A DNA stretch of 64,000 bases, from contig CAWGQH010000009.1 of the NCBI GenBank assembly GCA_963824735.1, forward strand, positions 12,142 through 76,141. Reading direction: 5' to 3'. The notes beneath the pieces were generated by a model that saw nothing but the letters and a program-made list of their open reading frames with translations, had not been told where the DNA came from and ran no database searches. The position numbers and the translations under genes were made by a program. The stretch comes from an uncultured Chloroflexia bacterium. Lineage in GTDB: Bacteria > Chloroflexota > Limnocylindria > Limnocylindrales > CSP1-4. Below, piece by piece: positions 8,271 to 15,437 of the stretch; the stretch's first letter is position 1; each line of letters begins with the position of its first letter.

Positions 8271-8506
8271 GGTCCGAATGACTCCAGGATGAATGCCGAA
8301 CCAGGGACGGTTGCCGCAGGACTATACGGATCGCCCGCCCGATGCGGACCCCTTTCCGGCGGCGATGGGACTCCTTTCCGGTGACCCCCGGCACCGCGCG
8401 GCGGGGTCCGGTGGGGTCCCGACGGGAACGGTGCGCACGCGTGACTCCGGGCCATCGCGGCCATCCTCGGGTGGTACCCTCACGCGCCAAGGAGGCTGCC
8501 CGCCGC

Positions 8507-10944
<2,438 letters not shown>

Positions 10945-10948
<4 letters not shown>

Positions 10949-11442
10949 GCACGGTCCGCTTCCTGGTCAACGGCGAACCGACCGAGATCGACGTCCCGGG
11001 CATGCGCCGCCTCCTCGACGTCCTGCGCGAGGACCTCGGGCTGACCGGCACGAAGGAGGGCTGTGGAGAAGGGGAGTGCGGGGCGTGCACGGTCCTGCTC
11101 GACGGTGTCGTCGTCGATTCGTGTCTTGTGCCGATCTGCCAGGTCGACGGTTCGATCGTGCGGACCGTCGAAGGACTCGCCCGTCCGGCCTCGACGCCGG
11201 GTGGTACGCCGGAGCTGGACGAGCTCCAGACCTCGTTCCTCGAGCTGGGCGGCGCGCAGTGCGGGATCTGCACGCCCGGGATGCTGATGGCGGCCCGTGC
11301 GTACCTCGACGACGGCGGCGGGCCGGACGAGGCGGCGATCCGCGAGGCGATCGCCGGCAACCTCTGCCGCTGCACGGGCTACACGAAGATCATCGACTCG
11401 ATCGCCGCCGCCGCCCACGGGCCGGAAGGACCTGCGGCGTGA
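10945..11442 (+). CDS. xdhC: Xanthine dehydrogenase 2Fe-2S subunit
   Basis: GCGEGECGAC, QCGICTPG and NLCRCTGY motifs. ATGA overlap with the upstream gene. Only the last 165 aa of the 1049-aa track ORF are real. Confidence 0.93.
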
Positions 11443-11639
11443 AGGACGGCGAGTTCGACCGGCTTCGCATCCCGATGGCCGACCCGGAGGACGCTGACGA
11501 TCCCGAGTCCGACGAGTACGCCGAGCGGATCGGCGTCGGCGCCTCACCCGCGCAGCTTGCCGCTGGTTCGGCGATCCTCGCGGGCCTCGTCCTGGTCGGC
11601 CTCGCCGCGCTGCGTCGCAGGCGCAGCCCGGAGCGCTGA
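11439..11639 (+). CDS. Small hypothetical membrane protein inside the xdh operon
   Basis: GTGA overlap with the xdhC stop and ends 2 nt before xdhB. Acidic N-terminal half, C-terminal TM helix, RRRR tail. Confidence 0.7.
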   Translation: MKDGEFDRLRIPMADPEDADDPESDEYAERIGVGASPAQLAAGSAILAGLVLVGLAALRRRRSPER

Positions 11640-11641
11640 CG

Positions 11642-12499
11642 ATGCCCGTCGAACCGCCGATCGTCACCCCGCGCTCGCTCGACGACGCCTACGCGGCCCT
11701 CGCCGAGGCGCCCCATCGGCCGATCGCGGGCGGGACCGACGTCATGGTCCAGCTCACCGGGGAGCTGGGGCCGGTCCCCGAGCGGATGGTCGACCTGTGG
11801 CGGCTCGACGAGCTGCGCGGCATCGGACTCGACGGCGACCGCCTCGTGCTCGGCGCGCTCACGACCTTCAGCGAGATCCGCCACTCCCCGTTGTGCCGCG
11901 AGGTGGTGCCGGCCCTGGTCGAGGCGGCGGCCACGATCGGCGCGGCGCAGATCCAGAACCGCGCCACGATCGGCGGCAACGCGATGAATGCCTCACCGGC
12001 CGGCGATTCGCTGCCGGTCCTGCTCGCGACCGACGCCGAGTTCGTCGCCGGCTCGCGGCGCGGTGAGCGGACGATCCCCGCAGGCGCGTTCTGGGTGGCC
12101 TACCGCACGACGGCGCTCGAGCCCGACGAGCTGCTGCTGCGAATCCGCATCCCGTTGGTGCCGGGGCGTGAGCTGCGCTTCCGCAAGGTCGGCACGCGCC
12201 GCGCCCAGGCCATCAGCAAGGTCGTGCTCGCGCTCGCCCGGCGTGAGACGGAGCCTGGCGGCCGCTGGACCGAGGTTCGCCTGGCACTCGGGTCCGTGGC
12301 GGACCGGCCCATCCGGGCGGCCGCCACCGAGGCCGTCCTCGAAGGCGCCGAGCCCGACCAGGGGACGGCCGACCGCGCGGCCGACACGCTGGCCGGCGAG
12401 CTCCGGCCGATCGACGACGTCCGTTCGACGGCCGACTACCGTCGGACGGTCGCCGCGCGCGTGCTCCATCGGCTCGTGCGCGAGGCCGGCGGCTGGTGA
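11642..12499 (+). CDS. xdhB: Xanthine dehydrogenase FAD-binding subunit
   Basis: IAGGTD, QIQNRATIGGN, ASPAGD and DDVRSTADYR motifs. Confidence 0.93.
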   Translation: MPVEPPIVTPRSLDDAYAALAEAPHRPIAGGTDVMVQLTGELGPVPERMVDLWRLDELRGIGLDGDRLVLGALTTFSEIRHSPLCREVVPALVEAAATIGAAQIQNRATIGGNAMNASPAGDSLPVLLATDAEFVAGSRRGERTIPAGAFWVAYRTTALEPDELLLRIRIPLVPGRELRFRKVGTRRAQAISKVVLALARRETEPGGRWTEVRLALGSVADRPIRAAATEAVLEGAEPDQGTADRAADTLAGELRPIDDVRSTADYRRTVAARVLHRLVREAGGW

Positions 12500-13014
12500 T
12501 CGACCTCGAGGTCGGGCCCGCCGACGAATTCGAGGCCGCTGTCGCGCCGCTGTTCGAGGGTGCGCCGCAGTTCCTCGCGCGGCTCGCGGCGGCGCGGCCG
12601 TTCGCCACGCCGGACCAGTTGTTCGCCACCGCCCGATCGATCGCCCATGCCATGCCCGAGGCGGACCAGATCGAGCTGATCGATGCGCATCCGCGCCTTG
12701 GCGCTCCACCCGGATCGGTGTCGGCGCTGTCGTTCGTCGAGCAGGGTTACGACCGCGACGCCGCAGACGCGGCGGCCGAGACCGAGCGTGCCCGCGTCGC
12801 CGCGCAGCTGGAGCGCCTCAACGCCGCGTACGAGGCACGGTTCGGCTTCCGCTACTGCGTGTTCGTGGCCGGCCGGCCGCGCGCGGCGCTGATCCCCGGG
12901 TTCGAGGCCGCGCTGGAACGGCCGCGCGACGACGAACTGCACCGGGCACTCGATGCGGTGGTGGACATCGCGATCGACCGGCATGCGAAGCTGTCAGCGG
13001 AGGGAGCGCGATGA
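12496..13014 (+). CDS. uraD: OHCU decarboxylase
   Basis: HPRLG and LNAAYEARFGFRYCVFV motifs. Directly upstream of uricase. Confidence 0.9.
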   Translation: MIDLEVGPADEFEAAVAPLFEGAPQFLARLAAARPFATPDQLFATARSIAHAMPEADQIELIDAHPRLGAPPGSVSALSFVEQGYDRDAADAAAETERARVAAQLERLNAAYEARFGFRYCVFVAGRPRAALIPGFEAALERPRDDELHRALDAVVDIAIDRHAKLSAEGAR

Positions 13015-13856
13015 TCGAGCTCGGCGCGAACCGCTACGGCAAGGCGCAGATCCGCCTGGTGCGCGTGGTCCGCGGGCCGGGTGCCCACCGGCTGCGCGAC
13101 CTCACCGTGGCGATCGCGCTCGAAGGCGAGTTCACGGCCGCGCACGTCGACGGCGACAACGAGCTGGTCGTGGCGACCGACACGATGAAGAACACCGCCT
13201 ACGCGTTCGCCAAGGAACACCTCGACGGGTCGCTCGAAGCCTACGGCCGCGCGCTCGCCGACCACTTCCTCGCGTTCGAGCAGGTCGACCGGGCGAGCGT
13301 CTCGATCCGCGAGCACGGCTGGTCGCCGATCGCCACGCCGAACGGGCCGGCGCCCGATGCCTTCGTCCGCGCCGGCAGCGGAACGCGCGTCGCGACCGTG
13401 GTCGCCGCCCTCGGCGGGACGACGATCGAGGCCGGCGTCGAGGATCTCGTCGTCATGAAGACCGCGCGCTCGGCGTTCAGCGGTTTCCCGCGCGACCAGT
13501 ACACAACTCTGCGCGACACCGACGACCGGATCATGGCCACCAAGGTCACCGCGATCTGGCGCTACGGCTCGCCGGACCTCGCCTCGGACGCGCTCCACGC
13601 TGCGGTCCAGGCGACGCTGCTCGAGGTCTTCGCCGACCATGACAGCCCGTCGGTCCAGACCTCTATCTGGCTGATGGCGCGCGCGATCCTCGAACGGCAC
13701 GAGGAGGTGGCCGAGGTGCGCATGGCGCTGCCAAACCTGCACCACTGGCTCGCCGACCTGTCGCCGTTCGGGCTCGAGAACGACAACGAGATCTTCATCG
13801 CCACGACCGAGCCGCACGGGCTCATCGAGGCGACCGTCCGCCGCGGGGAGGGCTGA
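13011..13856 (+). CDS. pucL: Factor-independent urate oxidase (uricase)
   Basis: NRYGKA, ATDTMKNT, SPSVQ and LPNLHH motifs. ATGA overlap with uraD. Confidence 0.95.
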   Translation: MIELGANRYGKAQIRLVRVVRGPGAHRLRDLTVAIALEGEFTAAHVDGDNELVVATDTMKNTAYAFAKEHLDGSLEAYGRALADHFLAFEQVDRASVSIREHGWSPIATPNGPAPDAFVRAGSGTRVATVVAALGGTTIEAGVEDLVVMKTARSAFSGFPRDQYTTLRDTDDRIMATKVTAIWRYGSPDLASDALHAAVQATLLEVFADHDSPSVQTSIWLMARAILERHEEVAEVRMALPNLHHWLADLSPFGLENDNEIFIATTEPHGLIEATVRRGEG

Positions 13857-13859
13857 ACG

Positions 13860-15433
<1,574 letters not shown>

Positions 15434-15437
<4 letters not shown>

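Follow-up and report, generated by a model that had tools for sequence, protein, structure and literature searches.

In a xanthine dehydrogenase (XDH) operon from an uncultured soil Chloroflexota bacterium, a short interval separates the gene of the Fe-S subunit from that of the FAD subunit. Does it encode a protein, and, if so, what could such a protein do beside an enzyme of this kind? The operon lies in a 64,000-nucleotide stretch of DNA (referred to here as the window) from a metagenome-assembled genome (MAG) of the class Limnocylindria. We know of no characterised xdh operon with such a small gene. A preliminary description of the locus had placed an unannotated, tail-anchored protein of 66 residues in the interval and had proposed that it is a membrane anchor or an assembly factor for XDH.

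The small gene and its operon

The positions of the genes, and of the parts of the small protein (P0001), are given in Table 1. The best solved relative of the large subunit is chain B of Rhodobacter capsulatus XDH (1jro_B, E = 1e-76). The mechanical open reading frame (ORF) of this subunit begins at position 8342; the likelier start is the GTG at 8507, which excludes 8342-8506, because a Shine-Dalgarno sequence (AAGGAGG) lies ahead of it and the resulting protein agrees with homologues of 818-819 aa. The Fe-S subunit gene follows with an ATG that overlaps the large-subunit stop (ATGA), and the same gene order as in the window was observed in the operons of relatives.

The small gene is joined to its neighbours at both ends. 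Its GTG (11439-11441) overlaps the TGA of the Fe-S gene (11440-11442), its own TGA occupies 11637-11639, and only 2 nt separate this stop from the ATG of the FAD subunit gene (11642), which is preceded at 6-9 nt by a GGAG word within the last small-gene codons. These junctions and coordinates are as first described. GGAGG-like words (for example, GGAGGG, AGGAG or GGGAG) were also found upstream of several orthologous small-gene starts. The earlier remark that the gene is missing from the ORF track was likewise correct: the mechanical list gives a single open frame of 364 codons (10545-11639) in this 70% GC DNA, and the small gene has no entry of its own because it is hidden within this longer, spurious frame.

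Table 1. Positions of the genes of the xdh operon and of the segments of the small protein within the window
Feature	Position	Strand	Basis or remark
Molybdopterin (large, L) subunit, XDH-type	8507..10948	+	Pfam Ald_Xan_dh_C, MoCoBD_1, MoCoBD_2
2Fe-2S (small, S) subunit	10945..11442	+	Pfam Fer2, Fer2_2
Shine-Dalgarno-like GGAAGGA	11424..11430	+	8 nt upstream of the GTG of the small gene, within the 3' end of the Fe-S gene
Small gene, 66 codons, single-pass small membrane protein P0001	11439..11639	+	Sequence, homologues, dN/dS, AlphaFold2
P0001 residues 1-12, conserved N-terminal motif (here KDGEFDRLRIP)	11439..11474	+	Near-invariant in 31 close homologues
P0001 residues 13-35, variable acidic linker, predicted disordered	11475..11543	+	In-frame indels; AlphaFold2 pLDDT ~60
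P0001 residues 36-58, S-P-A-Q helix cap and Gly/Ala-rich transmembrane helix	11544..11612	+	Alignment, AlphaFold2
P0001 residues 59-66, RRRR cluster (59-62) and short tail SPER	11613..11636	+	R59-R62 near-invariant
FAD (medium, M) subunit	11642..12499	+	Pfam FAD_binding_5, CO_deh_flav_C
Rest of the tightly coupled operon	12496..15437	+	Pfam matches
OHCU decarboxylase	12496-13014	+	Pfam
Uricase	13011-13856	+	Pfam
Malate synthase	13860-15437	+	Pfam

The small gene encodes a protein under purifying selection

The small gene has a GC content of 0.81, 0.52 and 0.88 at codon positions 1, 2 and 3, a profile resembling that of the flanking genes. Within the genus, its pairwise dN/dS values were 0.20-0.50, compared with 0.12-0.34 for the FAD subunit and 0.07-0.12 for the Fe-S subunit, the last range being taken from three cleanly aligned pairs since the copy from one genome was misaligned and gave values above 1.

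Homologues were readily found. A word-seeded search returned ~100 clusters whose proteins are 60-95 residues long, with E values down to 1e-27, and a profile built from diverse members added ~70 further clusters, giving ~170 homologue clusters overall. These proteins are 49-119 aa long, together with forms of 44-50 codons read at genome loci, and all of them stand alone. When 1.84 billion representative proteins were screened with a profile HMM (filter stage only, no restriction on length), just 11 clusters at 50% identity were recovered, all of 58-85 residues and none of them fused to a subunit or to any other protein. The alignment of 31 close homologues consists of two near-invariant blocks separated by a stretch that differs by whole codons, and the indels of the small gene are confined to this linker and are in frame.

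The alternative that the interval is a non-coding spacer or an RNA element draws on the long chance open frames that arise in 70% GC DNA, and three other spurious ORFs do overlap the interval. This conservation at the protein level, with in-frame indels and dN/dS below 1, rules it out; the GC profile is of coding type, and neither an Rfam match (E up to 1) nor a terminator or promoter was found in 11439-11639; we consider its probability negligible. The small gene is thus a protein-coding gene under purifying selection. Conservation in related operons was the check on which the preliminary description had staked its proposal, and the interval proved to be coding, with homologues kept in the same slot wherever their neighbours were examined, although their occurrence is patchy.

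Architecture of the small protein

P0001 was first described as having an acidic N-terminal half, a C-terminal transmembrane helix and an RRRR cluster, all of which are present, with 12 D/E against 4 K/R before residue 39. Its N-terminus is charged and acidic with no hydrophobic leader, indicating that there is no signal peptide. The N-terminal motif takes the form KDGEFDRLRIP in the genus of the window and DTERIPVPTNG in many other members, including distant ones; it can be written as DR[LI]x[IV]P or, in its general form, as [DEG]R[LIV]x[LIV]P, which occurs in 134 of the 171 members compared (78%). The linker that follows is mostly acidic or Pro-rich across the members.

The most widely shared part of the protein is the helix and its surroundings. 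An S/T-P-x-Q cap ahead of ~20 Gly/Ala-rich hydrophobic residues was found in 166 of the 171 members, often preceded by alternating hydrophobics (for example, FTVAVTP or ITLALTP), and 3-8 K/R directly follow the helix in every member, within a tail of 6-30 residues. The S/T-P-x-Q sequence corresponds to a classical N-capping box, in which proline takes the N1 position, and the cap probably just fixes the beginning of the helix. P37, L40, A41, A42, G43, A45, A48, G49 and L50 are invariant in the 31 close homologues. Residues 40-58 form the sole hydrophobic run of P0001, and AlphaFold2, given a 125-sequence alignment, modelled residues 37-61 as a helix with pLDDT 90-97, the sole part of the protein modelled with confidence. 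The unusually short SPER ending of the copy in the window recurs in three independent metagenome proteins in the alignment and therefore does not stem from faulty assembly. The short members (44-50 aa) have no N-terminal motif and keep only the cap, the helix and the basic tail, indicating that the helix region is the core of the family.

No match to Pfam or NCBIfam (E up to 10) was obtained for P0001 outside its C-terminal helix. The helix itself resembles C-terminal sorting domains (PF00746/TIGR01167, TIGR03382/TIGR03901 and NF033465), in which a helix is followed by an Arg-rich cluster and preceded by a short conserved motif, and we therefore considered whether it could be a sorting signal of the LPXTG, MYXO-CTERM or PTPA-CTERM type on a secreted peptide subject to sortase-like processing. 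Some sources label relatives TIGR03382 or MYXO-CTERM, several CTERM models match weakly, and the cut-off of PF00746 (20) or TIGR03382 (15.85) is marginally exceeded by a few relatives, with scores of 24.6 and 17.7, respectively. P0001 itself scores below every curated cut-off (NF033465, 16.5 against 29; TIGR03901, 15.5 against 20; TIGR03382, 14.4 against 15.85; PF00746, 13 against 20), and the matches span only the helix and the Arg cluster. Moreover, unlike proteins with sorting domains, it lacks both an N-terminal signal peptide and a large exported passenger domain, and neither the LPXTG nor the Gly-Cys signature motif is present. The sorting-signal reading is therefore largely refuted, and we regard it as highly improbable; the automatic names of the relatives reflect their helix-plus-Arg composition. 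Taken together, these proteins constitute an undescribed small-protein family within known general kinds, namely, small single-pass membrane proteins that lack a signal peptide, and accessories of enzymes in the xanthine-oxidase family.

Distribution, gene slot and losses

The relatives belong to Chloroflexota and carry the NCBI name Candidatus Limnocylindrales, and the homologues are annotated as hypothetical proteins, apart from a few labels driven by composition. A genome-locus search with the close alignment gave matches in same-genus MAGs only. Within the reach of sequence searches, the family appears to be confined to one class of uncultured Chloroflexota; unrelated analogues in other phyla would lie beyond detection.

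Wherever the neighbours of the small gene were examined, it lay in the slot between the Fe-S and FAD subunit genes, namely, on two long same-genus metagenome contigs, on two short contigs with distant members and at every inspected genome locus that carries it. In nearly all loci its start codon shares nucleotides with the stop of the Fe-S gene (ATGA or GTGA), with a 2-nt gap at one, and its stop usually lies 0-6 nt ahead of the FAD start or overlaps it, with a spacer of ~35 nt at one locus. In the family of the window, 14 of the 45 loci in which the Fe-S gene precedes the FAD gene carry the small gene, and these span 10 genera; 15 further loci of the family with the FAD gene first are not comparable and stand outside the 45. 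A second family of the same class has a 45-codon version at the same place in 2 of 12 genomes (one genus), and hhalign comparison of these members with the family profile gave 86-91% probability over the segment comprising the cap, the helix and the basic tail.

The 14 carriers include L071 (genome G025), where the Fe-S/FAD spacer holds a mini-version of ~35 codons with the helix and RRR and no ATG, GTG or TTG start after the upstream stop; this copy is perhaps in decay, or perhaps read from an unusual start. Other material was seen in the slot elsewhere. L055 (genome G103) has an insert of 714 nt that by eye encodes an AbrB/MazE-like antitoxin and a PIN-domain (VapC-like) toxin, L060 (genome G024) has an insert of 701 nt with no evident plus-strand gene, and the 119-nt spacer of L076 (genome G016) consists of short direct repeats encoding MRRS/PxAP-like units. 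The 15 loci with the FAD gene before the Fe-S gene (L077, L078, L080 and L082-L093) represent a second operon type, whose FAD subunit is 54-64% identical to that of the window and whose open frames reach 1288 codons, maybe as fused subunits or just as GC-rich open frames.

Carriers of the small gene are scattered in the FAD-subunit tree, and four pairs of same-genus sister genomes differ in its presence (G084 versus G018, G029 versus G090, G015 versus G082 and G025 versus G088). In the non-carrier sisters, the Fe-S and FAD genes directly abut. Since these sisters have the same operon with no small gene, XDH evidently works in its absence, and the small protein is dispensable. A search for paralogues or a relocated copy in the genomes lacking the small gene gave noise-level matches only. 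Most simply, the gene would have arisen once, long ago, in the class and then been lost cleanly many times. Because it shares an S/T-P-R-x-L helix start with the FAD gene, we asked whether it could be a duplicate of the 5' part of that gene; this was not supported, as profile comparison aligned the two segments with a probability of only 12%.

The large subunit of the window also has a 62-residue acidic, Pro-rich C-terminal extension (10760-10945) with a conserved motif of its own (APIE.G.DP.PD..TDP.P.R), which is found in some lineages only and recurs at L034, L035, L038, L043, L044, L048, L056, L068, L094 and L095. The extension is present at 7 of the 14 loci with the small gene and at 4 of the 31 loci lacking it; at the level of lineages the counts become ~3 versus 4, and the co-occurrence is then unconvincing, with no strict tie between the two.

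The patchy distribution raises the question of whether the gene is a young, weakly selected ORF that arose from the Fe-S/FAD spacer and is kept mainly for ribosome hand-over, its peptide having little or no function. Such an origin would suit the restriction to one class, with 11 representative clusters among 1.84 billion proteins, as well as the many clean losses, the mini-version with no canonical start codon at one locus, the unrelated inserts that fill the same slot in other genomes and a composition (Ala, Gly, Leu, Val, Arg and Pro) typical of GC-rich DNA. However, dN/dS is well below 1, three separate elements are conserved at the amino-acid level in two families of the class, and loci lacking the small gene abut directly, so that coupling needs no spacer ORF. 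We consider this explanation rather improbable.

Membrane topology

K/R residues are more numerous in the 15 residues after the helix than in the 15 before it in all 171 members (median 5 versus 1), and the N-tail is net negative in 156 of them; a few members have long basic N-tails, with up to 93 residues and a net charge of up to +8. Under the positive-inside rule, this charge bias predicts a cytoplasmic Arg cluster and an external acidic N-tail, which suggests that the Arg tail of P0001 lies inside and its acidic half outside the cell, a topology based on the rule and on precedents in other proteins. Because the helix is near the C-terminus, with only 6-30 residues to follow, insertion would have to take place after translation ends, whichever way the protein is oriented.

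The Pf3 coat protein and ProW have acidic N-tails that cross the membrane without a signal peptide. P0001 has a Pf3-coat-like layout, with a short, signal-less, acidic N-tail, one helix and a basic C-flank; proteins of the Pf3 type are N-out/C-in substrates of the insertase YidC and are inserted independently of Sec. Both the Pf3 coat protein and YohP, a small Escherichia coli protein, share with the family a short signal-less N-tail (acidic in Pf3), one helix, a basic C-flank and post-translational insertion, but they are unrelated in sequence and serve a different biology (phage coat and stress peptide), and some members of the family have N-tails of up to 93 residues. The topology of YohP has been mapped as Cin-Nout (PMC7549839). 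SCO2900 of Streptomyces coelicolor, a signal-less protein whose C-terminal helix is followed by four positive residues, is predicted to be N-out (Craney et al., PMC3087755); on protoplasts it was more protease-sensitive than N-in controls, and the N-out assignment is preliminary (PMC3087755). Compared by description, SCO2900 and P0001 both lack a signal peptide, have a single C-terminal helix with about four positive residues after it, and are small and lineage-restricted, whereas SCO2900 is not described as embedded in a dehydrogenase operon.

As in tail-anchored proteins in the classical sense, there is no signal peptide, and the single helix lies within ~30 residues of the C-terminus. The N-terminus, cytoplasmic in the classical case, would lie outside according to the charge bias of all 171 members, whereas the few long basic N-tails argue for the cytoplasm. 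The proposal of a membrane anchor therefore stands only in part: the gene encodes a real, signal-less protein with one C-terminal helix that is specific to this type of xdh operon, but the idea that its acidic half acts as a cytosolic anchor for XDH is undercut by a charge bias that would put this half outside.

Comparison with CoxG and XdhC

The XDH subunits carry no export signal, so that any direct contact with the enzyme must be cytoplasmic. An accessory with such a contact is known for a related enzyme: in CoxG of Mycobacterium smegmatis, a flexible linker joins a membrane helix at the C-terminus to a cytosolic domain that contacts Mo-CO dehydrogenase (10.1101/2024.01.09.574806). By analogy, and as a refinement of the anchor first proposed, the small protein could be a minimal tether, whose cytosolic N-terminal motif docks XDH, whose acidic linker serves as a leash and whose C-terminal helix holds the enzyme at the membrane, where FAD could then pass its electrons on to quinones. 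Several observations would suit such a tether. The succession of docking element, linker and helix parallels that of the tail-anchored CoxG of Mo-CO dehydrogenase (10.1101/2024.01.09.574806), the gene has a fixed slot between the Fe-S and FAD genes and is coupled at both ends, the N-terminal motif is kept by 134 of 171 members, the partner domain of an enzyme with no exported subunit would have to be cytosolic, and the long basic N-tails of some members favour a cytosolic N-terminus. Against these stands the topology, as in all members the 3-8 K/R after the helix would need to be translocated against the membrane potential. The small protein also has no SRPBCC or other lipid- or quinone-binding domain, the short members have no N-terminal motif with which to dock, no residues of the Fe-S or FAD subunit co-vary with the gene, and same-genus sisters manage in its absence. 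We regard the tether as the main rival to the reading favoured below, possible but doubtful.

The likeness to CoxG (COXG, PF06240) is one of arrangement: each is encoded beside the genes of a xanthine-oxidase-family enzyme, and each has a flexible linker leading to a membrane helix at the C-terminus. The ~150-residue SRPBCC domain of CoxG is folded and binds menaquinone, whereas the small protein has ~35 disordered residues with no Pfam match, and there is no sequence relationship between the two. A literature search for tail-anchored partners of XDH found nothing relevant. That the small protein is a domain-less counterpart of CoxG and docks cytoplasmic XDH as a fourth subunit, with purine oxidation in Limnocylindria feeding the quinone pool, seems to us unlikely. 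The genome of the window has a CoxG of its own elsewhere, which carries no C-terminal membrane helix; its tail was considered as a yardstick for topology and was dropped for this reason.

The second function proposed at the outset was that of an XDH maturation or assembly factor standing in for XdhC. The underlying observation was accurate, as no XdhC/CoxF-type chaperone is encoded in the window, and there is no XdhC/CoxI match on the contig of the window. However, three such matches lie on another contig of the same genome (C18), the small protein has neither an XdhC_CoxI domain (PF02625, PF13478) nor any other, its N-terminal 35 residues are predicted to be disordered, and two thirds of the related operons have no small gene. 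The assembly-factor claim was therefore not borne out, and we hold it to be very improbable. The XdhC/CoxI-type genes of contig C18 (genome G000, ~105-120 kb; L096-L098 and L116) were found together with CoxG, and this is probably a locus of the CO-dehydrogenase type.

A possible mode of action

The cap, the Gly/Ala-rich helix and the basic cluster are the only elements common to every member, which argues that the protein acts within the membrane. We tentatively favour, at somewhat less than even confidence, a dispensable small membrane protein that acts through its capped small-residue helix, paired with itself or with a membrane partner. In this reading, the small gene is a fourth cistron that xdh operons of Limnocylindria may or may not carry, presumably coupled in translation to the Fe-S gene upstream and to the FAD gene downstream. 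Its product would be inserted post-translationally, with the Arg cluster staying in the cytoplasm and the mostly acidic N-tail moved outside, as in the Pf3 coat protein and SCO2900. The small-residue helix would bind either a second copy of itself or a membrane protein relevant to purine oxidation, for example, a transporter or a respiratory enzyme, and the protein would act as a dispensable modulator rather than hold XDH through its acidic half.

This membrane modulator is preferred because it fits the universal helix, the predicted N-out topology, the repeated losses and the absence of co-varying residues; no residue of the Fe-S or FAD subunit was found to track the presence of the small gene, either across all loci or in the four sister pairs. 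Some observations sit less well with it. The fixed slot and the coupling at both ends are what one would expect of a stoichiometric subunit, and 78% of the members keep an N-terminal motif that resembles a docking peptide and would necessarily be cytosolic if XDH were its target. In addition, the few basic N-tails of up to 93 residues, with a net charge of up to +8, would be hard to translocate without a signal peptide, and CoxG provides a precedent for a tail-anchored accessory in this enzyme family.

In size, in having a single helix and in being embedded in the operon of the system that they serve, AcrZ, KdpF, CydX and MgtS are comparable to the proposed modulator, and such proteins are often dispensable and poorly conserved. 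They sit in operons for membrane complexes, whereas the small gene sits in the operon of a soluble cytoplasmic enzyme.

Implications

For annotation, the family calls for a correction, as relatives have been labelled MYXO-CTERM or LPXTG on composition alone. The ~170 sequences, together with the matched pairs of genomes with and without the gene, should help in studies of the birth, persistence and loss of such genes. More broadly, little is known of where three-subunit bacterial XDHs reside in the cell and of the electron acceptor they naturally use; for the related CO dehydrogenase, the link to the respiratory chain through the membrane-anchored CoxG was demonstrated only recently. A conserved membrane protein encoded within the xdh operon therefore gives a concrete starting point for asking whether there are XDHs that operate at the membrane. 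If the small protein makes no contact with the enzyme, it would still be a clean natural example of a repeatedly lost small membrane protein in the operon of a soluble enzyme.
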